Shown: piece by piece, positions 2,201 through 56,100 of the stretch
How the letters are laid out: each line of letters starts with the position of its first letter
Numbering within the stretch: the stretch's first letter is position 1
Assembly (NCBI GenBank): GCA_026770705.1
Contig: JANJGN010000041.1
Coordinates: forward strand, 5,394,001 to 5,458,000
Direction of reading: 5' to 3'
Origin: Isurus oxyrinchus
Lineage: Eukaryota
DNA length: 64,000 nucleotides
Translations under genes and position numbers: made by a program
The notes under the pieces: generated by a model
The model's database searches: none
What the model was told of the DNA's origin: nothing
The model's input: only the letters and a program-made list of their open reading frames with translations

Positions 2201-2429
2201 AAGCTTACTGATGCAAATAAACCAACACAACACAAATAAAACTTCCTAATACTATTAGAGCTGTGTGCTATGAATTCAGCTTACAGAAACTGCTAAATAG
2301 GGATGATTCTTAAGACACCTTACTTATTAGGCGCAGAGTTTATTCACTAGTTACTCATTGTTAATAAATAATAGTTTTACTGCTTTGAGGCTGCAACTTA
2401 TGTTGGGTTGAGTCCGTAAATTTGAAATC

Positions 2430-3200: not shown

Positions 3201-3229
3201 CATAGTGCCCCAGTCGACATTCTCAGAGA

Positions 3230-3570
3230 AGCACCATCAATGTACTTTATAGAGAAAAAATGATTCTCTCTAGTAACCACATGCAGGGCAGTCGCAGCAC
3301 GGAGGTCCATACAGAGAAAATCTCCCTGTAACATTTTTCCAATGAACACTCCCAGGAGGCGTAAAGCATTGGGAGAGTCACAGAGCAAAGCTCCCCCTGC
3401 ACTGCCCCCAATAATCAATCCCAGGAAATTAATGGCACGGGCTAAATGTAACTCAGATCTCTCTCTATACTTCCCAAATACTCACCAAGAGGACAGTTGA
3501 AGCATTGGGTTTGATACCGAGTGAAGCACCCTCTACAAAGTCCCCATCAAAAACTTTCAGGAGAGGGCAG
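3230..3570 (+). repeat. Degenerate tandem repeat, ~65-70 bp unit, ~5 copies
   Basis: Recurring CAGAG(N)AAAGCTCCC..CACTGTCCCC..AACACTCCCAGG motif at ~3310, 3380, 3450 and 3517. Confidence 0.55.
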
Positions 3571-3893
3571 CGTCCCTGACAAAAGGTCCTGCTGTAGCTG
3601 CATCTCAGCGGGAGTTGCAAAGCATTTTAATGCAGTGTTGTTTGGCAGGGGAAGAGATGGTGAGTTACTGGAGAATAGTACCTCCTAGTAATGCTGGTAT
3701 AATGAATGGAGTCACATTACCTTCGGGTGGAGTCTGGACGGAGTCATTCTTAAGGCACCACACATACATGGCAGTATCACGGGTATGGAAGTAGTTATTA
3801 GCAATTGTCAGTTCATGTATGTTCATACAAGTCTCGACGGCACCTTCAGTAGTCACCTAATAAGACTTTACCACATCCCAGCAGCTAAATGAA

Positions 3894-6800: not shown

Positions 6801-7774
6801 AGGAGGAAAAATCACTGGATTCCTCAAACGGACTGAGAGGCATTTAGTTGTTAAAAATAACTTGCTCAAATGGAAATCAAGAAGCGGGAACATGAACAAA
6901 ATGGTGAGCAGGTGCAAGGAGAAGTCAACTTTCTCACAGAATAGCGCGAGGCTTCTCATCTAAAAATAGGATAAGTAAGCATATAGAATGTGGCACTCAC
7001 GAAAAAAACGCTGCTAAGCGAAAAGTGGTCAGTGTAGAGAACTGACTTTGACGTACAGAGGCTGTGCTTGCTGAGATGTTGGATCTTCAAAATGAAAATA
7101 CACGAAAAAGTTTCCAACCGCCATCCAATGTGAAGAAGTTGGAGAATGTGATGCGTCATATGGGAGAGGGAAGCTAGACTTTGAAGACTCGAACAAGCAG
7201 TTTCAGGATTTAACGAACAGTCAGTGGGCATGTAAAAAACCTGAAAGGAACTGAATGCACATGTCAACGTAACCCTGTATAAAGATTTCACTGATAAATC
7301 TGAAGGAAAAGCAGCTCAACTTCCAGACCAATTGCTGCGCTACAGGAAAATGTTCAGATGTGTGCAAAAAGATTTGAAAGGAAAAGAGCAATCACAACTT
7401 TGGCTGATGTTGCAAAACAAGTGGAAATTAATGTTCTGTTTGTAAAACAACAACATCCAGCTAGATCATGGGGGAGCCAGCGGAAATAGAAAATCCCAGT
7501 CCACTCCAGAATTAGCTCGGAGTGCATATTCCCCTCAAAAGAATGGCACAAACACACGATGCCCGAGCAGATCAAATGGGATGTTGTTAATCAAAAAGGG
7601 AACTCAAAGGAGCACAAAAATCCAATCAAGTGGAGAGAAACAAGTGCGAGAAATGCGGAGCATCACAATCACAATTTCAAACTGAAAACATCAGCCCGAA
7701 GAAGCTACTTAAACCATTCACCAACACCGAACACACAAGAATGTGAAAGAATTGTCAAATATCCAGACACCTGA
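3894..7774 (+). pseudogene. UACA-like: UACA-like (N-Ank family: UACA/RAI14/ANKRD24/35) coiled-coil pseudogene lacking ankyrin repeats, copy A
   Basis: Frame-shifted translation follows the UACA C-terminal region in order: 'ILSSTADKSN*ELENV' ~ 'TLNDTLAKTNRELLDV'; 'SLDTLQMSLRP..QYEF*MSLNMKTQFAGKT' ~ 'ELDTIQECIK..ERKFKATEKELKDQLSEQT'; 'IAALQENVQMCAKRFERKRAITTLADV' ~ 'ITELQRRIQESAKQIEAKDNKITELLNDV'. Many stops and frameshifts. Confidence 0.7.
6023..6084 (-). mobile_element. 62-bp insertion identical to 183-244, opposite orientation
   Basis: Exact reverse complement of 183-244; the paralogous site near 32530 (ATGAAAACGCAATTTGC) lacks it. Confidence 0.85.
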
Positions 7775-7854
7775 ATTCATGATGTAATAGTGTTAGCCAG
7801 GTGCGCAAGGGTTGGGAGTGGAGAGGGGGGAGTGGGGGTGCTGTGGGGGTTTGA

Positions 7855-10800
7855 TGCTGGGCGGCAGAATTGGTGTCGGAAAAATTTAGCAAACAATGGT
7901 TTTATTTTAAATAACTATAGTCAGATGGAAGGGAGGATTGGTCGCTTTTAAATGATGGGCCTATTTTATCAGGTAGCAGCATGGCCATTGTAATGGAAAG
8001 GTTTTCGTCAGAGCAAGATTGAATGTGGTTTGGGGAATAGTGCCGCGAATGGTATGATGCATAGGTTTACATGAATGTAGAATTAGAAGCAAAGTATGAA
8101 GCAACTATTAAAGTCGTTGAACCCATGCATGTGGAACAGCGGATATGTACATTGTTATGGGTTAACAATTAATAGTTCATGTTTAAAATTGCAAGTCAGG
8201 AGACCTCTCAGTGGGAGATCAAAGGAACATTTTCAACAATTCCCAGGGCAGGGCAGGAGGCTACGCTGTCCAAACAAACACCGCCATGATATGTATAGCA
8301 TATGGTTATATATAGATTAATGCCGCTTCTAAGCCGCCGAATCACATAATCCAAAAACTAATATTTCACATGTTTTGATGCAGAGAAATTTCCAACTACA
8401 GACAGCAAACACTCTAAGGGAAGGTACAACAATAGATGATATATAGAACCAATCCGCCTATTCAATGTGCCCATCATACCCATCTCAGCGCTGGTACAGC
8501 AAAGTTTAGATACTGACAACTCTCTGTCAGCAATGCCCCCGTGGAGCATTCCAATGGGTATTATAGCAATGGCTTAGATAGACAGCAGGTCTTTCCCAGT
8601 TAAACCTTCCAACAGCTGGTTAAATACGGGGCTTGATGCATATGTCTATTTATTCATGGCAGGCATATCCCACTAATAGTATTTCACACTTGGCCGAAAC
8701 ATCTGCCAATGTTCTCCTAGGTGTGTTTTCCCAGATATGGCATCCCAATTGCCGATAAGCCTGAGCTGTTTTCGAGTAGCATTTCTTTTCCTTAAGCCTT
8801 GTATTTTCTAACTAACTTGCAGCCAAAGCAGCCTGGCCTGCTGCCACAGTGCTGTGCGTAATTGGATGTGACTGTTGCTGCTCTTTTAGATGCTTCCGTT
8901 CACTGAATTTATGAGAAGGAAAAAGGAACAAAGACACTTCTCTTAGGTTCTGGGTTGTTATGTCAGGTGTGTCATGACTGGAGGTAATGAAGCGAATAAT
9001 AATTAATCTGTGTGGATATTATTTGTATCTTCGTTTGTCTACGTGTGTGTGTGTGTGTGCGTTTTAGTGCAAGTGTATGTTTGTGTGTATGTTTNNNNNN
9101 NNNNNNNNNNNNNNNNNNNNNNNNNNNNNNNNNNNNNNNNNNNNNNNNNNNNNNNNNNNNNNNNNNNNNNNNNNNNNNNNNNNNNNNNNNNNNNNNNNNN
9201 NNNNNNNNNNNNNNNNNNNNNNNNNNNNNNNNNNNNNNNNNNNNNNNNNCTGAACTTCAATTTGGTAGAGGAGCCTCAGCACTATGAAAACGGAATAGTT
9301 TAATCAGTCATATTAAAGGAAAGCGCAATGTAGAGTACATGTTTCAAGTTATAAGTTTTGAACTGAACATTCTGGCCAAAAATCAAAACCTGAGCATGTT
9401 TATGAGCACGTGGGACTTTTAACCTACATACAAATTCACCCACGGGGAAATGGAGTGTATTTTAATGTTTCACAGTTTAACTTGGAACTTTGATACAGAT
9501 GATTCTCAGTTGAATTTATCCTGGTCAGAAACCTCTTTAAACCGTTGAAGAACTCAGGTTTGGCTCCTGACAAAGTTGCCAAAGGAGGAAAATAATTTTT
9601 ATGGACATTTGTAAACATTTGGCATTAATTTAAAATGCTTTAAGTTTCTGTGCAGAAATAATATTTTAAAATGTACCTGTAGAAGATTGAAAATGTCAGT
9701 TCGGCCTTACAATAAAAAGATAAGCCTAAAGCCTGGAATAATTTTGACAAAAATCCAATTTGGACAGTTCAAATAGAACTATGTTAAATGTTAAAAAGAA
9801 CTATGAAAATTCAAATTGCAGACTCTTTCTTTCAAATCAGGTAAAAGCAGCGAACAGCGATACATTAATCCTGTCTTCAAGGAGAAAACGCTTATACACG
9901 AGAGATATCAGGTGAGAAATGCATTACAAAAAGCTGAAAGGCTTAAAAATAATAGAAATTGGATATATAGTTTAGGCACAACTGAAGAAAAGCTAATGGA
10001 ACACTTTAATAAAGCAAGTTTCACTTATGATTGGGGAAGAGTTTTTCGAAATCCGATGAAGTGAAGCAATTGTGTGCAAAGTTATTTCCGCTCCCACAAC
10101 CAAACCCCACAACCACCAAACGCGCAGTGGAGTTAATCAGGTTGTGCTTACTGCTGCTTCCGTTTTACTTCATGATATAACCTTCGGATTTCCAGATTTA
10201 TATTGGCGCTCATGAGATTTCAAGTTTCCAAATTCACAGACGCGAGTGAACATATCAACCCATTGAACTGTGGGTCATAGGCATGTTGGATGGCTTGCGT
10301 TTGTGAACAAAGAGTTTTGTGAATTAAAGATAGAGCAAGTAGTCATATTGGTCCAGCGAACTGGCCTCACCAGATCAGGCTGCTTGTTGCTATTAGTTAT
10401 CTTTCGAGACAGAGTGCTGGAGAACGGGACTTCTGAGCAAACACACCGAACAATGAAAATGGGATTTCTCAACATCAGCTTTGAAAACCAGCAAGCCTGA
10501 AAACAATTGTTTCTGAAAGCGAAATTCATAAAGGAAACTGGACATCAGCTTCTATTCACCATTTCAAAGGGAAATGTACCTGACGTTTAAGGGGATAAAC
10601 AAATTCCAACTTTCAAAAGAAGAACGCTAGTCGGAAACAGTTCAGGCGGCTCCTTGAAAAAAACATGTTTTTTTTGGAAGAAATAAATTGAACACTAAAT
10701 TCAACATGGAGCAACATTAAAAATCGGACACAGCTAAAAGGTTACTTCTGTCAAACCAAAATTATACCTGAAGAAAGAACAAACAGGGCAAAACATGCTA

Positions 10801-10880
10801 ATAACTGGAGTCAAGCGTTTGATTCCAATTTCAAAGATATTATCAAAAATTTTCCTTTTCAGCGCATTCGACCATGACTC
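7855..10880 (+). pseudogene. Decayed multi-exon gene: two CCCH zinc-finger-like motifs, low-complexity region, OB/cold-shock-like segment (copy A)
   Basis: Combining copies A and B gives 'LCQRNVANKCFIGNNY..' and 'SSSMAIV-CKGFQ..KGxCRFGExCREW'. Acceptor/donor-like sites at 8720/8754, 8822 and 8889/8968. The segment after the gap reads 'HVGLLTY..GVYFNVSQF..IYPGQKPL*TVEE'. Confidence 0.4.
9040..9249. other. (GT)n microsatellite running into an assembly gap (N at 9095-9249)
   Basis: Directly visible. Confidence 0.98.
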
Positions 10881-11104
10881 AGTGCTAATGGCGCTCTAAT
10901 TTGAAAACAAAATGCAGAACAATCATCACAAAATCGGTCAAACCTTCTCTGTCAGGCTTCAAGGCCATGCTGCCACCATTGTATTACTCAGGGGTGCAAA
11001 ATAAACTGGTAGTTTTGACAGATCAAAAATGACTTGCGGTCGCCCAGGACACAGTTTGAAGAAAATTACATGCTATCATCATGCCATTACAAGCCAACAA
11101 GCTA

Positions 11105-11480
11105 TTACGAAATGATATTCAGAGGTCTGTTAAATCCTGCCATCTTGTTATTGCATTGAGAATACTGCCTTTTCCGGTGCATTTTAAAACATAAGCATTA
11201 ACCGAGCCCTCCAGTTTCTTGTCCTTCTTAATGTGAAAAACATCAAACTCCATCACTTTCAGCAGTTCAGCCTCTGCTTCAGTCTTTCCCTCCATCCCTG
11301 CCTCCACATTCTCTTGTTGTTCTGAAACGTGACCTTTCTGTTTCGAAGAATTGTGAGCTGACCTCGAGGTACACCTGCCACGTTCCCGGTCTCGATCTTA
11401 TGACCTTGAGCGGCCATGTCACCTGGCTCCCCTCACTTTGCCCTAGAATATTTCCCCAGGCCTCATGAACGAGGTGAGGT
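11105..11480 (-). pseudogene. SNRNP27: Processed pseudogene of U4/U6.U5 tri-snRNP 27 kDa protein, copy A
   Basis: 'HGRSRS*DRDRERGR..MEGKTEAEAELLKVMEFDVFHIKKDKKLEGSVNAYVL' vs SNRNP27 'RSRSRERDRRR..LEGKTEEEIEMMKLMGF.SFDSTKGKKVDGSVNAYAI'; no introns, frameshifted. Confidence 0.88.
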
Positions 11481-11899
11481 ATTTAGTATTGCAACTGTAT
11501 GAGGATCCGAGGAAAGGATTGAGGGTAAGATCTAGAAGTAGGGTAAAAAGGCAAACCTCAGTTGTGAATTGACAGAACTCACCTCCGGTGTCGTTCAATG
11601 TAACACATCAATTTCGTGTCCATGTACGTTCTAATCAATGTAAAGAGTAGATTAAGGGAATAACGTTAGATTGTTATCTTTGATATAAGTTTCTCTTTGC
11701 CTACAAGCTTTTTATGAGAATTGAAATTGATCATTTGGCCGCCGGTTGAGACATTGGGACCGTAGAGGAGTAGAAAAACAAAGAGCTTGAGATAACTACC
11801 CCCCTTTTATCGTTTTGGAAGTTACCTGGAAAAAACAGAATGAATTATTGATTGGCGCATCCTTTTAAACATATGAAATCCCAAATTGAAGTTGATTGG

Positions 11900-12420
11900 C
11901 AGAATCCTGTATCCCCAGATTCAGATTTCCAGCCTCCAGTAAGACGGATATTTTGGAAACGAATTTAAATTATATGTCCCCTGATTCAGATCTCCAGCCG
12001 ACAGTAACAACTATGTTTTGGAGATGAATTTAAAACCTGTGCACAATGATTCAGATCTCCAGTCTGCAGGAACAGGGATTTGTTGGAGGAGGTTTTGAAT
12101 CTTGTCTCCACTTTTCCAGATCTCTATCCTGGGGTACGTGGGAAGTTGTGGAGATGCAAGTGAGTACTGTAGCCGCTGATCCAGATTTGGAGTCTGGAGT
12201 CAACAGCCATGGTTAGAGATGGACTTCAATCCTGTATCCATGGGTCCAGGTATGCTTTCAGAGGTTCATGGGATGTTCTGGAGAAGGTTTTAAATCCTCT
12301 ATGCATTGGTCCAGATCTGCAGTCTGCAGTCACTGGCATGTTGCTGAGGTGAATGTGAATCATGCACCCCCTGATCCAGATCTTCAGTCTGAAGCTTCAA
12401 CGATGGTATGCAGTTGTAGC
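11900..12420 (+). repeat. 65-bp tandem repeat, 8 diverged units (copy A)
   Basis: GAT(T/C)CAGAT core recurs at 11918, 11983, 12048, 12113, 12178, 12243, 12308 and 12373, exactly 65 bp apart. Confidence 0.92.
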
Positions 12421-23700: not shown

Positions 23701-24847
23701 CCCCCGATTACTCCTTTACTCCCTTGTCTCCTAAATATTCCCGGTCTCCTGCAACTCTCATCTCCACTCCATTTCCACCTCCTTATTTAAACTATTCAAT
23801 GTATTCTTCCTTCCATGGAATAACAGAGATTTTTTATACCTTCTTTCAGGGCCGTTCATTTCAATACACCAGAGGATCCTGTAATACATCTCCATCGCAT
23901 CTCAATCATACTGGCAACTTTGGTGCCAGAGTGATATATCATTTTACTAATTATTACCTTTCCTTGCAGTGAACATATTCACGATTGTGATATTGAGGCG
24001 CCAGAGGTGCGGTCTCTCCAATTGTGTTACCCGTTACCTGGTGGCCATGGCAGTGGCTGATCTACTGGTCATTATCCTCGACCTGATACTGAGGCATATT
24101 CCAATTGTGTTTGATAAGTATTTTATTTTCCTGCAATCAGTCCCAGTGTGTAATATCCACGCCGTCCTGCTCTATGCAGCCACTGACTGTTCTGTGTGGT
24201 TCACCGTCACTTTTACCTTGGATCGATTTGTGGCCATTTGTTGCCCGAAACTGAAAACTAAATATTGCAATGAAAAAACGGCAGCTGTGATTCTGGGAAC
24301 CGTCATTGCACTGAGCTGTTCAAAGAACATTTTCTGGTATTTTTTGCTCACAGGTCAGTACCGGCTGGTAAACTTCCCCTGGTTTTGTGGTTACACAAAA
24401 GAGGTTCTGTTCTCTCCTGTCTGGGTAACAATCGAGTTCACCCATCACATTCTAACACCTTGTGTCCCATTTGTACTGATCCTGCTCATCAATATTTTGA
24501 CAGTCGAGTATATTTTAGTGACCAGCATGACCCGCAGGCGACTTCGGTCTCATAGGAGAGGGGAGAGCCCCAGAGACCCAGAGATGGACAATCGAAAGAA
24601 ATCGATCATGTTACTGTTTTATATTTCAGCCAATTTCATTGTTTTATGGGCAATGTTAATGTTTTATTCCATATGGACCCGAATGTATGATTTTGGCTTT
24701 AATTCACTGTATCTACATTTTTTTGTTCTGCAATTGGGTTTCATGCTGCAGCTCCTGAGTTGCTGCACAAACACTTGGATTTATGCTGTGACACAGACTA
24801 CGTTCAGGGAGCAGTTTTGGAAAATGTTGAAATATCCCTTCAATTAA
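20706..24847 (+). CDS. GPR139-like: Intact two-exon GPR139/GPR142-like class A GPCR, 350 aa (exon 1 20706-20880, exon 2 23970-24847)
   Basis: Exon 1 '..IQVGYFPILALFGVT' + G|GTAAG; exon 2 TTGCAG|TG AAC 'VNIFTIVIL..CGLS.CVTRYLVAMAVADLL', 'TLDRFVAICCP', 'SCCTNTWIYAVTQ..FR'. The phase-1 junction gives 1053 nt with no internal stop and seven hydrophobic helices. Confidence 0.93.
21680..22900 (+). mobile_element. PIF/Harbinger (HARBI1-like) transposase remnant in the GPCR intron
   Basis: 'NFYGFGRFQ' ~ 'NFYATGSFQ'; 'YHCIDVHL..IMLVNSHYRD*SRNPFIMKHS..KWIFGVEGCPVGTWI' ~ 'FHSLNVQL..I..V.ARYPGS.HDAFILR.S..GWLLGD.GYPL..WL'; 'KKRF..TLQYT..FIVFCLILH'. Confidence 0.8.
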
Positions 24848-27329: not shown

Positions 27330-29975
27330 CTTTTGGTGCTTTACGGTCGGGACAGTTGGTCAGCAAGTTTTAGATAGAGGCTAACATACTTACGGCACTC
27401 CTGGCTGCCTGGATGACCATATATGCAGAATGTGGCATCTGTTTACGCGCTTGAGAACCGGGTTTTGGAGCTCAACCATCGGCTGGATGCAGTGGTGCAC
27501 TCCGGTGCGCGAGACTCATATAGACAGCATGTTTCTTTTTTTTCACACAGTCACCGCACAGCTTAAGGAAGTGCAGTCAGACAAGGAATGGGTTACCCAA
27601 GTCAGAGGAAGGGGTGCTAGCAGTTAGTCAGGAAAGCCACCGAGTGTGTCTCATTTAAAAACAGTTTCTTTCTCTGTGTTGGAAAATGGTGACCGTGTTT
27701 ATTCCCATTGAGAATGCAGCCAGAGCCCAGCTACACAAGCTGGGAGTGGAGAAAGTGAGGGAGAACAATCGTGTCGGAGACCCCAAATTGTGGGTGAGTC
27801 AGGCGTATCAGCGGCCAAAGGCATAACTCCAGAATGGTGTGTTGCATCCCTGGAGCCAGGGTCAAGACTGTCATTTTACTGCTCCAAGGAATTCTGAATG
27901 GGGAGGGCGAGCAGTCAAATGACATGGTTCACATTCGTCCTAAATGACTTATGCACAAAGCGGGATGAGGACCAAGAATTTCGGGAGCAAGGTAGCAGCT
28001 TGAAAAGCAGGGCATCAAAGATCCTAATTTCTGGATTAATTCCGATGCCACGTCCTACTGTGAAGAAAAATAGGTGGATAGATTAAATTCATGTGTGGCT
28101 GATGATGTGGTGCAGGAGGACTACTGAAAGTTTTTCGGTCATTGGGTGTGTTTCTTGTAGAGGTGGGAGGTGAGGAAGTCCAAGATATTTTACCTCAACC
28201 GGAAATGCATCAAAATTATTTATTGGTAGGGCTGGGGTTGGGGGTGGTGACGTGGTGCGGGCGCTGGAGAGTGCAGGTTTGCTGGTGCTGTTGTTGCGGG
28301 TTTAAACAAATTTGGCAATGCGATAGGATATGTAATGGATGTTACGTAGGATGTGATTTATAGGCAAGTTTAGAAGAAAAACTACGTCAGCCAGGAAGAC
28401 AGCGATTATATAGTCAAGTTAAGGCACAAAGGAGAATGGCAGGGATGGATGGCACTTATTTTCATCCAAAGAGTCATGTGAGTCGGGCAGAATAATTAAC
28501 AGTGTTGATTAACACAGAGATCTGGTGATGGAAAGGGCAGGGCTGGCAGCTCAAAATTCTGTTTATGGAATCCGCAGTCGAGCCGAGGCTGCCGTTGGGG
28601 GGAGGGCGGTCGGAATAGAGGAGTTGGTTCACAACATTAATCAATGAGTCAATTGCTGCAAAGAGGAAAGATGATACCTTAGTGAGTTCCTCAGATGAGG
28701 CCGTATGGTTTGAGCTGAAATTCAAAAAGGGGCAAATCAATTTGCCACAGCGAAACAGCCAGATTGATAGAAAGGCTGACATGTAGCCAAAATCAGAGAA
28801 GTGGAATAATAACAGGGTAAAAATAGTAGCTTTCCACTTTCCCCTATCTACGAGGATATACAAAGTGGTGATGGCTTAGAGGGGACAGAATTTTCAAAAT
28901 GTACCGAGGGGAGATTTTTAACGTGAAGAACATGAATCCCACAAGAAAGGCAGTAGTGCTGGGCTTAGCATTTGGGAACAAAACTGGGCTATTGGTAGAA
29001 GTTTAAAAGGGGTAGAATTTCTCTGATTTTGTCCATAATTCAGTAAGTGTTAAGGTAGTTATTGGGAAGGATAAAATGCACCTGATATAAAGCTGCTGAA
29101 TTGGGAAAGCATGTTTTTAATAATTTAGTATACGATCCTGTCAAAGTGAACTGGAAGCATCCATCTGTCCAAAAACCTGCATCAGAGCAGAGGGAGTTTT
29201 GCAAAAAATGAAATATTGAGTGCTGGGGCAAACATTTCCAGAGAGCTCTGGATTTCGAGGAATGCACTGGATTGAATGAGGGAAAACAGGAAGCTCCTCG
29301 AGGAAGCTGATGGCTCAAAAAAGCATGAGTCCTTCAAAATATGTAAATTGTGTATAGTTACTTAAATAAGGAAAGTAGGAGATCGAAGAGGGAGCATTGG
29401 AAAACACTGGCAGGTAAAATAAAATAAAGCAAAAAGGCTTTTCGTAAGTATTTTACGGTCAGAGGATCACCAGAGAAAGAGCAGCTCGCATTTGGGACAA
29501 AATTAGTGTGTGGATTTATGAGATTTCGATGTTATTTCAAAAGTGCACCTTGCATCTGTATTTAGTGTAGAGAAGAGCGATGTAGGTATAGAAATCAGCG
29601 ACGGGGACTGTGATGCACATGAACAATTTAGGATTGAGAGGGAGGAGATATTAGATGTTTTATCTGACTTTGAAGTAGATAACTCGCCAGACCTAGATGC
29701 GATGATTTCCAGGCTGCTCTGCAAGGCAAGGAAGGAGATTGAAGTGTCCCTGACATTAATTTCAAAATCCAGCCTCGTCACAGGAGAATCTCAGTTGACT
29801 TATGGTCAGCGAATGTATTATCATTATTCAAATTAGGTGCCAAAAATCCAGGCAGCATTAAATTAGAGGATCTAAAATCAGTGTTAGGGAAACTTTCGGG
29901 AAAAAAAAAATATGTGGGAGAGGACTGACCTCTGCTTGGAGAGGCAGGGATTAATCAGCGATAGTCAGCATTATT
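27330..29975 (+). mobile_element. CR1-clade LINE (ORF1 plus 5' half of ORF2), decayed
   Basis: ORF1 'DDHICRM..', 'VCCIPGARVK', 'KSRASKILISGLIPMPR'; ORF2 'LASVFSVE..EEILDVLSDFEVDNSPDLDAMISRLL'. Confidence 0.85.
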
Positions 29976-30375
29976 AACCTGGATTGCCATTGACCTTTCC
30001 CGCAGTTAATCAAAACATTCTGGTTCTTTTAATCTGTGCAGGGTCTCTTGCGAAATTTTGATCCAGTTGGTACACTTAATTTCCAAGTATGTGGTCCAGC
30101 AGTGCCTCATTTCTCCTGGAACTGGAAACGCACTGCAGTAGAAATGTTTCCTGAGCACAGTTTAGGAACTGCTATTTTCAGTATCTACATTCGACTAATT
30201 GAACTCCCTCGTTCTAAGTATTCTACAATGCTTGCACTTCACTGTAATTTCCTTGCCACATAGAGGTTGTGCCCTTGCCACTTTGGTCTGTACTGTCTCT
30301 CCTGCACTGCAACATCATACAAGTTCGACAATTCCACCGGAAGTCATTTAATAAGACTTTGCAACATCGCAACAG

Positions 30376-33300
30376 CTAAATGAATGAAGCCAAAATCTAA
30401 AAATGGCTGGAATGAGTCCCTGGATTCCCATGGTGTGACCTGAGATAACATGTCAACATTGCTGGTGGAGTTAGTGATATATTTACAAAATGAAAACAGA
30501 AACCCAAAGAGGAGTTTGCTAAATTATGAAGTTTCCTTTGAGACGTGCAGGCCTAAGGTCTGCACCAGAACAAGTGGAAGTCCATTTCCAGGCTGCCCAA
30601 AAGTGCAGAATCGAGGAACATGCGCTGATCTCAAAAAACACAGTGCAATGCACAAACAAACAGACGACATGAGAAAGGATGATAGATGTATCCATTTTAG
30701 GGGAAATCCACTTTTTCAGAAGAAGCACCTGAGTAAGGCAGAGTCCATACAACTGGCCAAATCAATGCAGGCTGAGCAAATTACAAAATGAAGCTGGAGG
30801 TAAGTATTAAAATAGGCAGGACTCTCAGGACTTAGCACATCAAGGCGGCAGCTGGAGGAAAGCTGCAGCAAAAACTGGCAGCATTCCACCAGGAGGCCCA
30901 GCTGAAGTGAACGTAAGTTTTATTTATACAATTAATGCAATTAATTTAAACGACATGCTGAGTAGAGAAGAACCTGCAGCATTTAATAAAAAAAATGCTC
31001 CTTTCATTTGAACCCTGGGTTCTTGCTTTAAGAAAAATGAAAGCCGGGTTAACAGGCCTAACCTTTTGAATAAAATGGGATGGCCACAGTGCAATACTGC
31101 CGAATATTAAAAAAAAAGTGTGGAAATTCACAGCAGGGTTATTGACAGCTGCAGAGCCATCCTGAAGTGGATAAAAATGGATGTGGCACAGACAGCCATA
31201 AATGCGCAATGGCATTTAAAAAGATTAACTCAGGAAAAGAAAAATAAATTGCCTTGGATACGAAATTCCATCACAGCCACATTTTTGCTTCTGCAAGGCA
31301 TGAAGGGATAGTTTTCTTTATTTAAATTATTGGATGATTCAAGTCAAAGCACAATCTCTGGAGTCGTCCAGGCCAGCACCAACTTTACCCTCATTTACTG
31401 AATTGCATGACCGGTAATCCCAAGCTAGTACATTGATAATTCCTCAACCACCTTCAATGACAAAATAAATGCCTTTCATGAATCTTTGAAACATCAAGTT
31501 GAGGACTCTGTAGAGCCTTACAAGATGCATACAAATCCTGTAGCAAATTAACAATCGGCGAAATTACGTCCTTGAACACATTATATGAGGCAACATAAAG
31601 GTCCAGAACTTCCTGGAAATCCCTGGAACCTGTTTTTATGGGGGGCCTGTGAGATGATTGCTAATTACTTTCCCTATAAAATACCGATAATTGCTTCCAG
31701 CATTGTGCAAGCAGCTGGTAGTGAGCAGCAGGGAAATTAATAAAACTAGCGACTTGTCACGTGAAGGAGAAAAAGCATTAAAGAAAAAGCAATCGCTTGT
31801 TTCAAAGCTGAACAGGATGAATTGAAGTGTGAGATTCAGGCTGGATATGTAGATTTGAAAATGCATCGCAAAACGCAGTCTTCAAGGAGCCAGAATTTTC
31901 GAGGCCTGAACAAACAGAAGTTAGAGATAAAACAAATGGGGCAGGGTGGGAATTAGCACCCTCAAATGCACAGTTGGCAAATCAAACCGTGAGTTAGAAA
32001 ATCTCATCCACATGTACAGCCAAGCAAAACAATAGGGAATAAAAAGATTCAAATAAGCAGGAAAATTGAAAGGCTCTCTGCAGAATGAACCTATATAGGT
32101 CAAAAAATCATCAAAAAAAAAGATGTTGAATATTATTTGAGAACAAAGCTGCACTAGAACTATCAGCAGTATCAAAGGAACGTACTGAAGCTCAGAGTGA
32201 GTTGGTGTTAGTTGGCCAAGGAATTAATTAGTCGGAAAACAGCTGATTGTTCTCCTTCTTCAAAAAGCACAAATAAGTACATTATTCTTCAGCAGCATGA
32301 ATACATTAAAATCTCTCCTACACAGCACAACGGAAGAAGAGCACAGTAAAATCGAGGAGAACTTGCTGAATAAAAGGAAAGTGAAGATGAAGCAATTGAA
32401 GCTTCACAGCGCGAAAGAAAGCCTGGAGAAAAAAATTAACACATTACAGATGTCCCTGAGGCCAAATGATTTTCCTATGCAAAATGATGAAGAGTAGCAG
32501 CTTAAATTTCAGCTGACTCTGAACAAAATGAAAACGCAATTTGCAGGGAAGACTCCAGAATTTTGAAAATTATAGGAATAAGCCTAATCTGCCAGAAAAA
32601 AAAGGACAGAAGAGCTGAAGAAACAACTGACATTGAAAGGAAAAGTTAAAGCCCTTTCCAAAAATGCAAGCAGGTGATGAAGTTATGAACAAAACATTTG
32701 GAGAACTGTAGGAATTTACCTGCCAACGGAGACAGGCCTGGCCAACAGTGAAACCCACATGAAGGACAAAGAGAAATCACTGCTGCAGGCAGAGGACGGA
32801 GGGGGGCACTGGCAAACTGGCAGGGTCACTGCATTGGAAGCCCAGAGACCCAGGCTACTGCTCTGGAAGCATGGGCGCCACATCCACCACGGCGGCTGAG
32901 GGAATTAGAATTCAGCTCTTAAACCTGTAATTGCAAGCTAGCCCCAGTGATGGGCACCATGAAACTATCATCGATTATCATCAAATCCCATCACTTTACC
33001 AATGTACGTTAATTGAATGTCTGCCTTGCTGAACTGTTTTGACCGAAAAGTGGCTCCAGGAACCCAGCAATGCAGCCGGCTATAAACTGCGCTCAGCAGT
33101 CACCTAGTGAGTTCAGTTCAAAAGCAAAATCTATGGTCAAACAAATGTCGGTTTTCCAGCTACGCCCAGAACCTGTGGAAGAATAAGGAAGAAGAAAGAT
33201 TGAAAAACGATTGTAATTTGCGAATCTGATACTGAAGCTCAAGAGACAAAAATGAAAAATCACTGGATTCCTCAAACGGACTGAGGGTTGTTGAAAAGTG

Positions 33301-34250
33301 ACCTGGCTGAAATGGAGATCAAGAAGCGGGAACATCAAAGAAATGGTGAGCAGTTCCAAGTGAAGTCAAATTTCTCACAGAATAGCGGGGGGATTTTCAT
33401 CTACAAATAGGCCAAGTAAACTTAAAGAATGTGAGTGTGCAGCACGGCACTCATGAAAGCGACGCTGCTGAGCGAAAAATGGTCAGTGTAGAGAACTAAC
33501 TTTCATGTACAGAGGTTCAGTTTGCTGAGATGTTGGATCTTCAGCATGAAAATACCCCCAAAAAATTAAGCCGCCATCCAATGTGAAGAAGATGGAGAAT
33601 GAGATGTGTCATTTGGAAGAGGGAAGACAGACTCTGAAGACTCGAACAAGCAGTTTCAGGATTTAATGACTGAATTGGGCGAATCAAAGGGGCAGTCAAT
33701 GGGCATATAAAAAAAACTGAAAGGAACTGACTGTACAGGTCAGCGTAACCCTGTATAAAGATTTCACAGATAACTCCGAAGGAAAAGCAGCTCAACTTCC
33801 AGACCAATTGCTGACCTCAAGGAAAATGTTCAGATGTGTGCAAAAAATTTGCAGATAAAAGAGCAATCACAACTTTGGCTGAAGTTGTGAAACAAATGGA
33901 AATTAATGTCCCATTTCTCAATCATCAACATCAAGCTCGATCATGGGGGACACAGTGGAAATAGAAAATCCCAGTCCACTCCAATATTGCTCGGAGTGCA
34001 TATTCACCTCATAAAGAATGGAACAAACACAACTTGCCCGAGCAGATCAAATGGGATGCTGATAATCAGAAAGGGAACTCAAAGGAGCACAATAATCCAA
34101 TCAAATGGAGAGAAACAAGTGTGAGAAATACGGAGCATCATAATTTAAAGCTTAAACTGAAAACGTCAGCCCGAAGAAGCTTTTTAAACTATTCATCCAC
34201 ATGGAACACACAGGAATGTTAAAGAATGTTCAAATATCAAGACAACTGAA
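30376..34250 (+). pseudogene. UACA-like: UACA-like coiled-coil pseudogene, copy B
   Basis: 'ISTLKCTVGKSNRELENL', 'NKYIILQQHEYIK', 'SLEKKINTLQMSLRP..EE*QLKFQLTLNKMKTQFAGKT', 'IADLKENVQMCAKNLQIKE'; paralog of 3894-7774. Confidence 0.7.
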
Positions 34251-34329
34251 TTCATGATGTATTAGCGTTGTCCAGGTCCGCGAGGTTGGGGGGTGGGGAG
34301 AGGGGGAGTGGGGGTGCTGTGGGGAGTAG

Positions 34330-37005
34330 TTGCGAGGTGGCGGTATTGTGTCAGAGAAATGTAGCAAACAAATGTTTTATTGGAAATAATTATAGTCAGA
34401 TGGAAGGAAGGATGGTTGGTTTTAAAGGATGGTGCTATTGTCTCGAGTAGCAGCATGGCGATTGTAATGTAAAGGTTTTCAGGACAGTAAGGGTTAATGT
34501 CGCTTTGGGGAATAGTATCGCGAATGGTCTGATGCATAGGGTTACATGATTGTAGACGTAGAAGCCAAGTATGAAGCAACTAGTAAAGTGGCTGCACCCG
34601 TGTATGCGGAACATCGGATATGTATATCATTAAAGCTTAACAATGAATAGTTCATGTTTAATCATTGCAAGTCGGGAGACCTCTCAGTGGGAGATCAAAG
34701 CAGCATTTTCAACAATCCCCAAATTAGGGCAGGAGGCAACACTGACCAATCAAACATTGCCAGGGCAGGTATAGCATATCGTTATATATAGATTAATGCC
34801 CGATCTAAACGCTCCTAATTACAGAATACATGAACTTGTATTTCACGTGGTTTGATGCAGACAAATTTCCCTCTAAAGACATCAAACACTCTAAGGGAAG
34901 GTACAACAGTAGATGAGGTATATAACCAATCTCCCTATTCACTGTCCTCATCGTACCCATCTCAGCACCGATACACCAAAGATTTAGATACGGACAACTC
35001 TCTGTCTGCAATGTTCCCTTCGAGCATTCCAAAGGCTGTTATAACACTGGCTTAGATTGACAACTGCGCATTCACCAGTAAACCTTCCAATAGCTGGCTC
35101 AATCCGGGGGTTGAGGCATAAGACTGCGGGGAATAACCAGTCAGTACTATTAATGTGATATATAAAGTGAGCTTTATTCATGACAGGCATATCCCACTAT
35201 ACTTATAGTATTTCACAGCTGGTCAAATCATCTGCCAATGTTCTCGTAGATGTGTTTTCCTATTTATGGCGTCCCTATTGCCGATAATCCCAAGCTGTTT
35301 TAGAGTAGCTTTTGTTTTCCATACACCTTGTAATTTCTCACTAACTTGCAGCCAAAGCAGCCTGGACTGCTGCCACTGTGCTGCGCATAATTGCTTGTTA
35401 TTTCCGTTTCTCTTTTAGATGGTTCCGTTCACTGAATTTCTGAGAAGGAAAAAGAAACAAAAGCACTCTTCTTAGCTTCTGGTTTCTTACGTTAGGTGAT
35501 TCATGAATGCAATTGTCGTTAATCTTTTAGATGCTTCCGTTCACTGATTTTGTGAGAAAGAAGATGAAACATAAGCACTTATCTTAATTTCCGTGTTGTT
35601 ACGTCTGGTGTGTCGTGAATGGAGATAGCAAAATGAGTAATAAAGAGTCTATGTGGATAGCTAGTCTGCGTGTGTCTGTCTGTCTCTTTGTGTGTTTTGT
35701 TCATGCGTGTTTCTGTGTGTTTATGTTTCTGTGTGTGTATGTATGCATGTGTCTGTGAGTGTGTGTGTATGTGGGTGTGTGTGTGCGTGCCTGAATTTTT
35801 AATGCTTTTTCTCCCTGAACATTAATTTTGCAGAGGAGCCTCAACACTTTGAATATGGAATCGTTTAATCAGTCATATTAAAGGAAAGCAAAATGTAAAG
35901 AATATGTTTCAAGTTAAAAGTTTTGAATTAAAGTTCTTGCCAAAGATCACAACCTGATTATGTGTTCATGAGCACGTGGGAATTTTACCATAGATACAAA
36001 TTCAACCAAAGGGGGAATGGGGGGTGTTTTAATGTTCCACAGTGTGAATTGGAACTGTGATGCAGCTGATCCTCCGTTGGAGTTATCTTGGGTCAGACAC
36101 GTCTTAAAGCGTTTAAAGATGTTAGGTTTGGCTCCTGATAAAGTTGTCAAAGCAGCAACATGATTTTTAATGAAGTTGTCTCCGCTCCACAACCAAACAC
36201 CTCCACCACAAAACACGCTGTGGAGTTAATCATGTTGTTCTCATAGCTACTTCCGTTTTAGTTAATGATATAACCTTATGATTACCAGAATTATATTGGC
36301 TGTTATTAGATTTCAATTTTCCAAGTTTACAGACGTGAGTGAACATACCATTGAAGTGTGGGTCATAGGCACGATGAATTGCTTGCGTTTTTTAACAAAG
36401 ATGATTATTCATTAAAGCGCCGTGTGAACCCAAGAGTTTTTTTTTGAATTAAAGACAGAGAATAAGGTAATTGTGCTCCAGAGGACTGGCCTTACCAGTT
36501 CACGCTGCTTGTAACTACTAGATAACTTTCGAGAAAGACTGCTTGAGAACGGGACTTCTGAGCAAACTCACCGACCAATGAAGATCGGATTTCTCAAAAC
36601 CAGTTTTGAATACCACCAAGCTTCAGCACAGTTGTTTCTGAAACCAGAATTCATAAAATAAATTAGACATGAGCTTATATTTCCCGTTTTCAAAGGGAGA
36701 CTTAACTGACTTTTAAGGAGATTAACAAACTTTCAAAAGAAGAACGCTAATCGGAAAACAGTTCAGGCGGCTCCTTGGAACAAAAAAACAAGTTTGTTTC
36801 TCGGAAGGAATATATTGAACAATGAATTCAAAATTTGGGCAACATTAAAAATCGGACACAGGCTAACAAGTTACTTTTGTGAAAACAAAATTATATTTGA
36901 AGAAAGAACAGGGCAAAACATGCTAACACCTGCCGTCAAGCATTTGATTCAAATTTGAAAGATATTATCAAAATATTTTCCTTTTGAGCGCATTCGATCA
37001 TCACT
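34330..37005 (+). pseudogene. CCCH-finger/OB-like unknown pseudogene, copy B
   Basis: Paralog of 7855-10880; donor GTGAGC at 35167 and acceptor TTTTGCAG near 35833. Confidence 0.4.
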
Positions 37006-37243
37006 CCTTGCTAATGGCGTTGCAAGTTGAAAACGAAATGCAGAACAATCATCAGAAATTCAGTCAAACCTTCTCTGTAAGGCTTCAAGGCCATCCTGCC
37101 ACCAGTGCATGACTCGTGGTGCAAACTGCACAATGCAGGTCTCTGTCTGGAAGTTAGAGCAGATGAGAAATGGCTGCGGTCGCCAAGACCCATTCTGAAG
37201 AGTATCAGATGCTATCATCATTCCATTACAAGCCAAGAAGCAG

Positions 37244-37635
37244 TTATGCAATGATACCCAGAGGTCTGCTGAATCCAGCCTTCTTGTTATTGTGCTGACT
37301 ATACTGCCTTTTCCGGTGCACATTAACAACGTAAGCATTAACCGAGCCCTCCAGTTGCTTTCCCTTCGTAGTGTGAGAAACATCAAACTCCATCACTTTC
37401 AGAATTTCAGCCTCTGCTTCAGTCCCTCCCTCCGTTCCTGCCTCCACAAACTCTTGTTGTTCTGAAACGTAATCTTTCTGTTTCGAAGTTGATATTTAAA
37501 TCGGTTTGTGAGCTGACCTCGAGTTACACTTCCCACGTTCCCGGTTTGGAACTCATGAACTGGAGCGGTCATGTAACCTGGCTCCCCTCACTTTGCCCTA
37601 CAAAATCTTCCCAGGTCTCATGAACGAGAAGAGGT
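37244..37635 (-). pseudogene. SNRNP27: SNRNP27 processed pseudogene, copy B
   Basis: 'TKGKQLEGSVNAYVVNVHRKRQYSQHNNKKAGFSRPLGIIA*' vs '[41 protein letters not shown]'. Confidence 0.92.
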
Positions 37636-38039
37636 GTTCACTATTGTAACTGTATGGCGATTCGTGGAAATGATTGAGGGTAAGATCTAGAATTAGGGTA
37701 AATAGGCACAACATCAAATGGGAATTGGAAGAACCCACCTCCGGTGTCGTTCATGTAATTTTTCAATTTGGTGACCATGTATGTTCTAATGATTGTAAAG
37801 AGTAGATGGGGGGAATAAAGGTAGATTTTTTTTCTCTTTTGTATATGTGTTTTTCTTTGCCTACGAAATCTTTATGAGAATTGAATTCGAGGCATTGGGA
37901 CTGTTGGGGAGCAGAAAAGCAAAGAGCTTGAAATAACGACCGCATTTTATCCTCTTGGAAGTTAACTGGAAAAACAGGATGAATTATCTATTGGCACATA
38001 CTTTTAAATATAATAAAATCACGTATTGAAGTTGATTGG

Positions 38040-38530
38040 CGGAAACCTGTATCCCCTGATTCAGACCTCCAGCCTACAGTAAGATGGAAATTTTGGAGAT
38101 GAATTTAATTATGTATCCGTTGATCCAGATCTTCAGCCTACAGTAACAATTATATCTTAGAGATGAACTTAAACCCTATATACACTGATACAGATCTCCA
38201 GTCTGCAGGGACAGGGATGTGTTTGATGAGGATTTGAATCTTGTCTCCACTTTTCCAGATCTCCATCCTGGGGTTCCTGGGATGTTGTGGAGTTGAAAGT
38301 GAATAATGTAACCACTGATCCAGATTTCCAGTCTGGAGTAACCAGCCACGGTTGCAGATGGGCATGCAGTTAGTGCTACATGGGATGTTGCGGAGAAGCT
38401 TCTGAACTCTGTATTCAGTTCTCCACATCATCAGTCTGCAGTCATTGCCATGTTGCTCAGCTGAATCTGAATCATGTACCCACTGATCCAGATCTTTAGT
38501 CTGCAGCTACTATGATGTTATGTAGTTGTA
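38040..38530 (+). repeat. 65-bp tandem repeat, copy B
   Basis: Same unit as 11900-12420, with one internal deletion. Confidence 0.88.
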
Positions 38531-39267
38531 GAAGAACCCGATCTGCATTGACTCACTGTGATATACTACACTTGGGGAACTGTGCACATTTTCCCTGGTT
38601 CGGACATACTAGACTTTCCTGGCTCATGGCGTCAATAACCTCCGCCTGTCTCTTCATCAGGTAGCTGACTGGGATATCCCAGCCTTGGAGGGAAATGCAG
38701 ACATCGCCATTGTAAGGGAGGTGAGAACCGCGTCAAAAAAAAAATGTTTTGCTTTCTTTGAGTGCTGCATGAAGGATAGAGTCACTAAAAGTACACATGT
38801 ACCATTGTGAGCCCTGTCTGCGTCTCCGACTGCAGCTGACTGTCATTTCTGTAAGTCACGCTCTGCCGCCTCCTCAAGATGCAGCGCCCAGTGGTCCAGT
38901 GCTTTCTGCTTCATGTGAATAAAACCTGCTGCAGTGCGCAGTGCTCCTTGTCCATGCTCATTTCATATTTGCATCACCGCGCACTGACAAGGGAAGGAGA
39001 TGGAGGTTGGGAAATGTTATGGCCGCATTGACATGCGATTATGCCACAACAGATCTGGTCGCAGACACAATCAATTTGCCGCCAATGTCCAAGGCTCGTC
39101 CAGCACAATCCAGGATATGCCCTGCAACACAAGAAGGGCAGAGGCATCCTGGGTAACAGCAGACTGGCAGACAGTCCAGTGGGGAAATATTGCCGAGCTC
39201 CCAGCATTTACTGCAGACACTATGGTGCCTCAAAGCGCATCAGGGCAAAGACAGCAAACGGGGAGAA

Positions 39268-52770: not shown

Positions 52771-53304
52771 TGTTGTCAATACACAGACCGCCCACTCTTG
52801 AGTCTCCTAATTTTGCTTTTTGCAATCGATACACACGGCGGGCTGGTGCTATGCTAACTTTGACCAATGGACGACAGGCGGCTCAGGTACCGGTCACGAT
52901 CATTTATTCCAGTAATTGCGAGGACAGAAGCATCTCTAGGCATCATGCACTAACATGCAGTCAAACTGCAATCATGCAGCGTATTTTATACATTGCTGAT
53001 CCCGTACAAGAAGAATATTCAAATCCCCTTCTTGTCAGAATATATGTTATGTCATACATGCTCTTTGACACCGGCAGACAACTCACCCCTATCCTGGCTG
53101 GGACCAACTTTAGTTTCCTTTTCGGTTGAAAGGATCACTTCATCTATGTTGTTGTCAGCCTCTGCCTCCAATCAGGATCCCAAAGCCTTACTGTTTTTTG
53201 CAGGCTCTAAGACTTTGCAATATTCATCTGGTAACTTTAACTGTTAATGTGCTAGATAGCACCGGATGCATGACGTATTCAAATAATCATTCACTTTCAA
53301 TACA
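52771..53304 (-). mobile_element. 3' LTR of an env-bearing retroelement
   Basis: On the minus strand: purine tract (..GCAGGAAGAA), then TGTA start at 53304, TATAAAA (52984-52990), AATAAA (52903-52908) and ..CAACA end at 52771; directly downstream of env. Confidence 0.6.
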
Positions 53305-53499
53305 TTCTTCCTGCATGACCCCTAAGAATCACCAATACTGGGTCGTTGCCTAGCCCGGATTCGACAAATACATTTGTACTGTCCGTCCCTTTATGTACCA
53401 ACACACATTGATACTGGCCACTAATACAGCTTTGCATTAAAAATTTTGACGGTCAGGTCGGCTGTATCATCTGGTCCTTCACTTGAGGTCTCAGATTTG

Positions 53500-54778
53500 T
53501 TAAACTTCTTCTCCCCCTTTTACATGCCTCCAGCTCCTCTTCTGTGACCCTCAGTCACGATGAATCAGGTAGGTAAAATATATAATAGTTATCAGCTGAA
53601 TCAGAACCAGTGCATGGGAAATAATCCAAATACACGGGTGCATTTGTACATTGGAGCCTCAATTCCACCGTTACGGTGAGGAGGAATCTACTTGCTCGAT
53701 ATCCTCTTTTGACACTCTAACCTGTTTACAGTAAGTTCAATACATCTGCAGAGCTTGTCTCCGAATCGGGGTTAGGTGCTCTGGCAGTTAATATATTATC
53801 ATATGAGAACTGATTCAAATACCCTACCGGGTTATCGTTATGGCTTTCCATGACCTGGGTATTAGTCCATCCTCTCTTGTATATTTAGAGCAGTTGTACA
53901 TTTCCCAGGCTTGCCGGCACCTGCGGGTGTAGGGACAACAATTGATTATGGATGGATCACATCAAGTTACCCCAATACTGGATCATTTGCTGCCACGCAG
54001 TGATACAATATCTCCTATTCCCCATGTATGCAACATGGGTCGGTTTTTTTGCAGCCCATGCAGTTTCCATTATACAATTTGCTGCTGCTTTGAATTCACA
54101 CTTTGTTTCTTCCATCTCATATATTGGATGAGCACATACAAATGCTGTGCTTTCGAAACCGCGCCCTTCTAATATTGTGCTAACTATATTCCCTTGTATG
54201 TCAACTGCTTATGGCAGAATGTCATGTTGCCTAACATAATAGTTTCCCCACATCACCCTAACATGTTCGGCTCAATACAATGTTCTGCTGGGTGTTGACG
54301 TAGGTATAACAGGTATCACTAAGTCAATGCCAATTAGCATGTTACAATTCACAATGCATTCAACATTCTTTCTACATACACGTGTTAAACCTCTGAGCTG
54401 GCACACAGCCAAGTCATGATTTCTATGTCGTGGATGGTTAAATAAAAGTTCATTGGTTGCCCATGATGCAACTCCATCTTCATTATTCTCTTAAATTCAG
54501 TCGGGCTTGTTCCAGTGTACAGGGTCCATTGGTCCTGCAGACATAACTACTGTTTGCTTAACCTGAAATATGTATTCCTTTACTGTTAAATTTATTGATA
54601 GACCACGCATGACCTTCGAGCAAGTTAGCCATGTTATGAATTAACTGTTTCATGTCATGGCCTGTATTAAATTGGATGTCGTGAAATCCATGTCCCCGCT
54701 TAAAATTTCCTTTAGCTGGGAGATCAAGGATTGGACAATTTTGTCAACAGTTTACAGGTCAGTGGACTTAACACAGAA
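53500..54778 (-). mobile_element. env: Decayed retroviral-type envelope gene with paramyxovirus F-like ectodomain and C-terminal TM helix
   Basis: 'STDL*TVDKIVQSLISQLKEIL' (heptad) ... 'LVIPVIP..TLY*AEHV..GNYYVRQHDILP*AVDIQGNIVSTILEGRGFESTAFVCAHPIYEMEETKCEFKAAANCIME..VAYMGNRRYCIT' ... 'HPCIWIISHALVLIQLITIIYFTYLI' (TM); 5' end cut by a CR1. Confidence 0.72.
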
Positions 54779-54789
54779 GCTTCCCCACT

Positions 54790-56100
54790 GAAGCATTCTG
54801 AAGTTTCTATCCATTTGAGTAATAAGGCGGTATTATTCTTCCAACCAAAATGCATAAACTCACTATTCTCAATATTAAACAACATCTAGCAAATGTTGTC
54901 CCATTCACCTTACTTGTCCATATCCATTTGTAAATATCTTATATCTTCATTACAACTTATTCCCCACCTATTTTGGAATTATCTGTAATTTTAGCTATTG
55001 TACATTCTATCCCTCAACCAAAGTCATTCATAACGATTATGAATAGTTGGGCCCTAGGACCGAACCCATTGGAAACCCAATAATTACAGCTGGTGTTCGG
55101 GAAAAAAAGAACCATTTACCCAAACTCCTTTCTTTCTGTTGGTTAGCCAATCCTCTCTCCAAGCTAATATAATACCCATGACTCCATGTGATGTACCTTG
55201 TGAATTAATCTTTTGTGCAGCTTCTTTTCAAAGGCCTTCTGCAGCGCAGAAACACAACATCCACAGTATCTCCATTATCCACTTTGTTTGTCACATGTTC
55301 CAAAAAACTGTAGCAAATTACCCAAACACGAGTTAATTTCATAAAAAAATGCTGACTCTGTTGGACTTTATTTCGACGTTCCAAATGCCCCGTTAGTAAT
55401 TCCTTAATAACGGTTTCCAACAATTTCTAAACGATAGATATTAAACTGGTTTAGAGTTTCCTAATTTCTGCCTCCCCCAATCCTTCTGAATAAGGTCATT
55501 ATATTAATATTGTTCCAATCCAGTGCAACCTTTTTGGAATCCAGAGAATTTTGGAACGTAATTACCAATGCATTCACTATTTCTGCTGCCACATCCTTTA
55601 CGACCACTGGATTTAGGTCAACAGGTCCTGGGGACTTGTCACCCTTTAATCCAAAATGTTTGCTCAGTACGTTTTCTCTAGTTATGGTCATTGTTCTAGG
55701 TTCCTGCATCTCTATTCCCTCTGCTCTGCCTGTTACGATTGGTGTGGCAGTAGTTTCCTCCGCCGTGAAAATTGAGGCAATATATTGAGACTAAACATAT
55801 AGTGCCTTTTCTATGTTCCCCACTGTTAACTCTCCAGTCCTACCATCCAACTGACCAACATTCGCGTTTGCTACACTATTTATTTTTATATACTTTTGGA
55901 AGAATTTGATATCACGTTTTTAATTTTGCGCTAGTTTACTTTCATAGTTTTCCTTTGTTATTTTTATTAACTCTTTGTTCGTCTTTATAATGTTCCAAAT
56001 CTTCCTGCTTGTCACTTTCCTTTTCCACTTGGGATGCCTTAATTTTGGATTTTGTGTTGCCTTTAACTTCCTTGCTTAGCCCTGAAAGATTTTTTTCCCA
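54790..56100 (-). mobile_element. CR1 LINE ORF2 (RT) fragment
   Basis: 'KGDKSPGPVDLNPVVVKDVAAEIVNALVITFQNSLDS..DW' and 'SQHFFMK..FLEHVTNKVDNGDTVDVVFL'. Confidence 0.92.

Follow-up and report, generated by a model that had tools for sequence, protein, structure and literature searches.

According to passages of the respective papers, an SnRV-related lineage has already been reported in the elephant shark (PMC4422223), class III endogenous retroviruses (ERVs) are widespread in chondrichthyans (PMC6001957, PMC11089739), and class III dominates the ERV reverse transcriptases (RTs) of these fishes (PMC11089739). Lokiretroviruses, as presented in passages of PMC7947760, are known from lampreys, bony fishes, amphibians and reptiles, and they combine a dual RNase H with an F-like Env that has a signal peptide, an RXKR site, a fusion peptide, a coiled coil and a transmembrane (TM) anchor. 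Lokiretroviruses are further characterised by an RT clade that is sister to all other retroviruses, by a tether before the second RNase H and by an integrase closest to CGIN1. The foamy virus Env has been linked to F in passages of PMC11468914, where the link serves as support for a separate foamy subfamily; the passages searched in that paper do not mention loki, snakehead or walleye viruses, and the main-text passages of Viro3D do not mention snakehead and walleye viruses. In a literature search confined to the main texts of open papers, no statement of an F fold for the Env of SnRV or of the walleye viruses was found. A captured env in sharks was not found in the literature search either, the nearest precedent being the gecko foamy env ERV-Spuma-Ppi/Gja, which is described in passages of PMC6669660 as open, under purifying selection and present at an orthologous locus.

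The window analysed here, a stretch of 64,000 nucleotides from the shark Isurus oxyrinchus, contains a dead, 5'-truncated fossil of a multi-copy ERV, an ordinary relic of a known fish-retrovirus grade with an under-recognised envelope type. The explanation that we consider quite probable joins this fossil, with its predicted F-type Env, to a sister copy on contig C40 that was likely domesticated for its env. It is this sister env that is new, the window copy being only a dead fragment. The features of both copies are collected in Table 1.

The env remnant in the window and its duplicates

On the minus strand, positions 54772-53527 of the window correspond to codons 301-722 of an env that is naturally open in another copy, with a nucleotide identity of 76.9% over 1,267 columns and three frameshifting indels. 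The original prediction had described a decayed frame of about 420 codons. Both the length (422 codons) and the decay stand, with 12 stops in the 433 codons of the frame picked at that time, but the remnant is not a single frame, as the indels interrupt it and the TM anchor is read in another frame. The longest open piece, which contains the peptide quoted in that prediction, falls within residues 210-602 of the structural model described below, the range that aligns to F proteins. No signal peptide, furin site or fusion peptide is found within the window copy, whose 5' env part is missing. Moreover, the reported absence of a gamma-type ISD or CX6CC motif was upheld both in the window env frame and in the open copy, a single CX6CC pattern occurring only off-frame.

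An LTR with TATA and polyadenylation signals had also been proposed, and both signals were located (Table 1). The purine tract is present as well; its position is another matter, since it lies about 180 nt before the LTR, and the polypurine tract of the family, which adjoins the LTR, has decayed in the window copy. The left end of the element had been placed at 52771, which overshoots the LTR by about 75 nt. A search for gag and pol, which took in the window and the following 20 kb, was negative, and the place of the 5' part of the provirus is taken by a LINE fragment foreign to the retrovirus, which from its motifs we take to be of the CR1 type.

Contig C41, on which the window occupies positions 5394001-5458000, carries 15 env copies that are 78-99% identical. 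Those that were compared have common flanks and are therefore segmental duplicates. The ratio of silent to replacement changes was about 1:2 to 1:4 in all seven copies compared, and the C41 env copies, including that of the window, are evidently in neutral decay. A rhodopsin-type GPCR exon was identified at positions 23951-24844 of the window (plus strand; 7tm_1, E 7e-15). Additionally, an internal duplication of the window at a distance of about 26.5 kb was observed (1-12400 versus 29500-38600, about 83% identity). The contig has the appearance of a tandem GPCR array, with which the env fragment was multiplied as a passenger.

Table 1. Coordinates of the features in the window and of the open env in the sister copy.
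Feature	Position	Strand	Evidence or remarks
3' LTR, about 480 bp, ends decayed	52847..53328	-	69% and 72% identical to LTRs from two dispersed copies
AATAAA polyadenylation signal in LTR	52903..52908	-	sequence
TATA-like box in LTR	52984..52990	-	sequence
Purine-rich run just 3' of env, not an LTR-abutting polypurine tract	53505..53521	-	sequence
Decayed env remnant	53527..54772	-	family-env codons 301-722: N-terminal heptad region, Cys-rich core, C-terminal heptad, TM
Transmembrane anchor	53563..53622	-	frame -2 alignment, other frame than the ectodomain piece; open-copy hydropathy peak 688-716
Longest open env piece, 83 aa	53957..54208	-	part of the Cys-rich beta core
CR1-type (presumed) LINE fragment	54966..55976	-	tblastn E 2e-25 with the LINE ORF from locus L105
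Open 724-codon env of the C40 copy	G000:C40:8928251-8930422 (L042:1480-3651)	-	in a decayed provirus

The provirus family and its predicted envelope fold

The family is more than a chance resemblance: of 1,957 candidate places, 40 were scored and yielded 45 matches, and nine of ten dispersed copies have paired LTRs. The two most complete copies measure 8,920 and 8,956 bp. The family layout, of about 8.9 kb, is LTR-gag(CCHC)-stop-PR-RT-tether-RNase H-IN-env-LTR. The order of the Pfam matches was zf-CCHC (two knuckles in gag), protease (below the cut-off), RVT_1, RT_RNaseH_2 (E 6e-9), RNase_H (E 1e-6) and rve, so that a second RNase H follows the tether. The gag stop is in frame with the protease in six of the seven copies read, the seventh having a sense codon. 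The primer site is complementary to tRNA-Ser (Ser was called at three of four loci), and a pyrimidine-rich, splice-acceptor-like site lies upstream of env. For Pol to be made, the gag stop would have to be read through, whereas Env would be translated from a spliced mRNA. The divergence of the LTR pairs in six copies (K2P 0.03-0.16) would correspond to 7-37 or 68-366 My under a rate that is tenfold uncertain, too wide a span for a date in years.

Two further observations concern the structure of the copies. About two dozen of them have in common a single in-register deletion within the 5' portion of env (query positions from about 210 to 490/520), suggesting the spread of a deleted subfamily. 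Young and near-identical Penelope-like (GIY-YIG) elements were found inside several proviral copies (L021:7659-8831, L039:3360-4754 and L117:8356-9999).

The open env of the C40 copy, which encodes 18 Cys, has the following order of elements: a signal peptide, a Thr/Pro-rich linker, RDKR at residue 284, a hydrophobic peptide, heptads, a Trp-rich membrane-proximal region and a TM. An AlphaFold2 model of the monomer was obtained with an alignment of 64 sequences. Residues 200-600 were mostly modelled at pLDDT 80-97, at an overall mean of 63.5 and a pTM of 0.47, and residues 10-196 were poorly predicted and are effectively unmodelled. The top Foldseek matches in the PDB were RSV F (E 6e-11) and paramyxovirus F. 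Using VIA-align, Z scores of 11.3 for NDV F (377 residues aligned, rmsd 18.1), 9.1 for measles F and 9.0 for foamy Env (269 aligned, rmsd 6.5) were obtained, and nine of the ten top rows were F or foamy Env. The original claim of a paramyxovirus-F-like envelope is supported by these comparisons at the level of the predicted structure, according to which the family Env belongs to the class I fusion proteins and is of the F type known from paramyxo- and pneumoviruses. Furin would cut it at RDKR, and a six-helix bundle would then form from the freed hydrophobic peptide together with two heptad regions, as happens in RSV F.

The predicted F core, residues about 210-600, is shared with foamy Env and with paramyxo- and pneumovirus F. 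The family Env differs from foamy Env in having an ordinary N-terminal signal peptide instead of a long leader and in being without the inserted foamy receptor-binding domain; the gag-pol strategy is also different. Profile comparison of Env gave 94.5% for WDSV Env, 92.7% for SnRV Env (over 353 columns) and 65% for PFV Env, with MLV Env as a control at 5.8%. Homology to the SnRV and walleye Env proteins is accompanied by a difference in length, the family Env (724 aa) being shorter than those of the walleye viruses and of SnRV (about 1,130 aa).

The matches in BFVD were a fish filovirus glycoprotein, baculovirus F, and the Env of WEHV1 and WDSV. The best viral structural match there was the fish filovirus glycoprotein A0A2P1GML9 (E 2e-13), with paramyxovirus F ranking behind it. 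A direct link to F did not emerge from sequence searches: in Pfam and the PDB nothing was matched by the env pieces, by the open env or by either of two env profiles, PF00523 included, and a V-set domain was matched in one distant homologue only (E 0.045). One chordate cluster at 0.82 was found for an Env homologue in the ESM Atlas, which is considered a lead only. When viral contigs were scanned, no locus was retrieved by either the env alignment or the RT of the family.

Full-length open F-type env homologues (P0044, P0054, P0062 and P0066) were found in Chiloscyllium punctatum (739 aa), Pelodytes ibericus (723 aa), Mantella aurantiaca (677 aa) and one further assembly. These are candidate captured or recent envs; that of M. 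aurantiaca belongs to a 16-member cluster, suggesting a young family.

The open env of the C40 copy

The decayed C40 provirus that contains this env has a histone H1 gene at a distance of about 4 kb, and an H2B gene is also close by. Of the 62 places scored out of 6,365 candidates, C40 alone has an env that is full-length and free of stops; another scoring covered 129 of 2,876 candidate places, and given these fractions there may be further open copies. Frameshifts are present in the env of each of the 46 other loci that were compared (one place being represented twice). Among the 47 loci the C40 env has both the lowest branch dN (0.033, against 0.050-0.202 for the others) and the lowest dN/dS (0.14, against 0.21-0.92), as calculated from three-way distances.

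Env and pol were compared in eight copies. In this comparison the C40 env branch had a dN of 0.027 and a dS of 0.216, whereas the C40 pol contains 8 stops in 740 codons and has the highest branch dN of the eight copies (0.113). In six other copies with both genes, dN was 0.056-0.079 for env and 0.043-0.071 for pol. The private silent to replacement changes of C40 were 37:24, 45:18 and 27:17 in env versus 30:77, 43:64 and 37:84 in pol (Fisher p 4e-5 to 5e-4). When the same counts were compared between the C40 env and the env of its nearest paralogue, p values of 6e-8 to 0.04 were obtained, while the two pols do not differ. Constraint is weaker in the N-terminal 192 codons of the C40 env (silent to replacement 7:9). 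The C40 LTR pair is the most diverged of the six measured (K2P 0.161). The search for intact or domesticated copies, which had been recommended together with the original prediction, has paid off in this copy: judging from the substitution patterns, its env is under purifying selection and its pol is dead.

The C40 insertion appears to be shared by a second organism (organism B), which is about 3% diverged. Runs of organism A showed 0-1 differences to the C40 locus in seven of the eight listed pieces. For organism B the C40 flanks (49 differences in about 1,580 bases), the LTR, pol and env were recovered in pieces, and indels were listed outside env only. In four organism-B runs, whose short contig pieces cover about 1.3 of the 2.2 kb of env under a 97% filter and possibly have paralogue pieces mixed in, ten env differences were listed, of which six were silent and four were replacements, with no stop or indel (binomial p 0.02-0.05). 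One of the silent differences falls in the furin-site Arg codon. Among the sequencing runs no RNA run with the C40 env was listed, and two runs guessed to be RNA yielded short, paralogue-like pieces with many differences; both results are uninformative on expression.

Since the C40 env has been kept intact under selection, the host likely adopted it as a gene of its own, and we regard it as a likely domesticated F-type envelope. The host would keep the protein at the surface, either as a receptor-blocking antiviral factor or as a cell-cell fusogen; both roles are compatible with the furin site, the fusion peptide and the TM that it has retained. An unlikely alternative is that the C40 env is open owing to a late arrival, by gene conversion or recombination from a replicating virus, or to luck, and that its low dN reflects viral selection. 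A long synonymous branch such as that of C40 (dS 0.22-0.24) is expected from extra viral replication, and a single survivor is more easily expected when candidate copies number in the thousands. However, the nearest paralogue of the C40 env among the 40 places scored is only 88% identical, which disfavours a late replacement, and the silent excess goes on after the split from organism B. As for luck, the simulated chance of a stop-free C40 env at 8% neutral change is 0.0005, before indels are counted, and frameshifts are the rule at every other locus compared.

Domestication of the C40 env by the host is thus the reading that we prefer, and it has known counterparts. Syncytins are open envs under purifying selection at orthologous loci, as is the gecko foamy env. 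The C40 env is likewise open and under purifying selection, and the pieces from organism B are consistent with an orthologous locus. It differs from both in belonging to a cartilaginous fish, in being derived from a non-foamy retrovirus and in lying within a still recognisable provirus, with two organisms compared. Cartilaginous fishes, among which live birth arose repeatedly, thereby gain a concrete candidate for a captured env.

Position of the family within Retroviridae

The family RT scored 137 bits with foamy viruses, 115 with MLV and 76 with Ty3, and its best PDB matches were foamy viruses. Two RT trees were built, one from a quick search with 89 rows and the other from 49 chosen rows under LG+G4 without a mixture model. 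The virus names of IMG/VR contigs were taken from an RT match to the supplement of PMC7947760, from a PDB match or from genome length, and the loki references P0113 and P0115 were labelled by eye against rows of that supplement. In the trees the family falls in Retroviridae, outside the loki clade (100/99) and outside Gypsy (100/100), and it forms a clade with Heterodontus and other proteins (support 99/97). Its placement inside Retroviridae is weakly supported (86-91 bootstrap), as is the deeper branching; reference P0010 shifted its position between the two trees, and HIV-1 forms a long branch. The closest named proteins, with 21 of 49 representatives named, are those of Heterodontus, Heptranchias, Mustelus, Chiloscyllium, Scyliorhinus, Pristiophorus and Rhinoraja, followed by frogs, which points to a shark as the host. 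The family and SnRV were not joined in the free tree, and their grouping was not rejected by the AU test (p=0.061). We take the family to be a lineage of Retroviridae that is rich in chondrichthyan members and belongs to the SnRV / class III grade. A possibly undescribed chondrichthyan retrovirus lineage had been suggested; the grade is already known from elephant-shark ERVs, as reported in PMC4422223.

An in-frame gag-pol stop and a CCHC gag are common to the family and SnRV, and the RT of P0007, a close relative of the family, is 43% identical to that of SnRV. The family differs from SnRV and clade Huo in having its own RT clade and no room for accessory ORFs. The elephant-shark CmiERV lineage I is placed in the same grade by the descriptions in passages of PMC4422223 and PMC6001957. 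The walleye viruses WDSV and WEHV have a read-through pol in common with the family, whereas its RT lies outside their clade in the 49-row tree, and no cyclin or accessory genes were seen in it.

That the family is a cartilaginous-fish lokiretrovirus, as the original prediction had entertained, is very improbable. The F-like Env anatomy and the dual RNase H are indeed those described for lokiretroviruses in passages of PMC7947760, and the loki Env passage in the supplement of that paper resembles the fusion-peptide region of the family, a comparison made by eye only because no loki Env was among the 21 named of the 49 homologue representatives. On the other hand, the family RT lies outside the loki clade in both trees, the grouping of the family with loki was rejected by the AU test (p=0.0016), and in its motifs the RT agrees with the SnRV-type and not with the loki-type rows of the same supplement. 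Moreover, six chondrichthyan genomes were screened in PMC7947760 and none is marked positive in the passages available from it, and no smc-like ORF was seen in the family. The form of this explanation that remains is a recombinant, with a loki env on a non-loki pol.

The RT matches in the PDB and the shared Env fold could also indicate a fish foamy-like ERV, which appears just as improbable as a lokiretrovirus. Foamy viruses have a Gag without CCHC and a Pol that is not fused in frame to Gag. The CCHC knuckles, the in-frame gag-pol stop and the tRNA-Ser primer site of the family do not fit this pattern, there is no space for accessory genes, and a clade with four mammalian foamy viruses was rejected (AU p=0.002; fish FLERVs are absent from the tree). 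An env-bearing Ty3/Gypsy retrotransposon can practically be dismissed, because the RT score with Ty3 is below those with foamy viruses and MLV, Gypsy is excluded at full support and a second RNase H is present where Metaviridae have a single one, even if F-type env is known in Gypsy elements (passages of bioRxiv 10.1101/2023.10.26.564294) and baculovirus F is among the BFVD matches. Of the original prediction, the F-like Env is retained, and the lokiretrovirus and Gypsy identities are not borne out.

A wider reading, which we put forward tentatively as possible but somewhat short of probable, is that an F-type Env domesticated by a shark is expressed as one of its own genes, with the role of a syncytin-like fusogen or of a receptor-blocking factor, the first such case in cartilaginous fishes, and that the F-type Env is the ancestral retroviral envelope. 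If this is true, the F-type Env of loki, foamy, SnRV, walleye epsilon and shark/amphibian viruses would be the ancestral form, later replaced by the gamma/beta-type Env. With F-type Env in a large shark/amphibian lineage, SnRV and the walleye epsilonretroviruses, the four scenarios of Env origin given in passages of PMC7947760 become testable, and an F-type ancestor is favoured.

At least two further ERV families with the same Env type (25-40% identity) were observed in the genome at loci L151-L170, and the RT of one of them is near Latimeria/Xenopus "NYNRIN-like" proteins. Additionally, several host-protein predictions are fused to env pieces, namely Heterodontus fbxo15 isoforms, a Pristiophorus Niban1-like protein and a cadherin-like protein (P0005, P0006, P0059 and P0061); these represent either exonisation or annotation artefacts.
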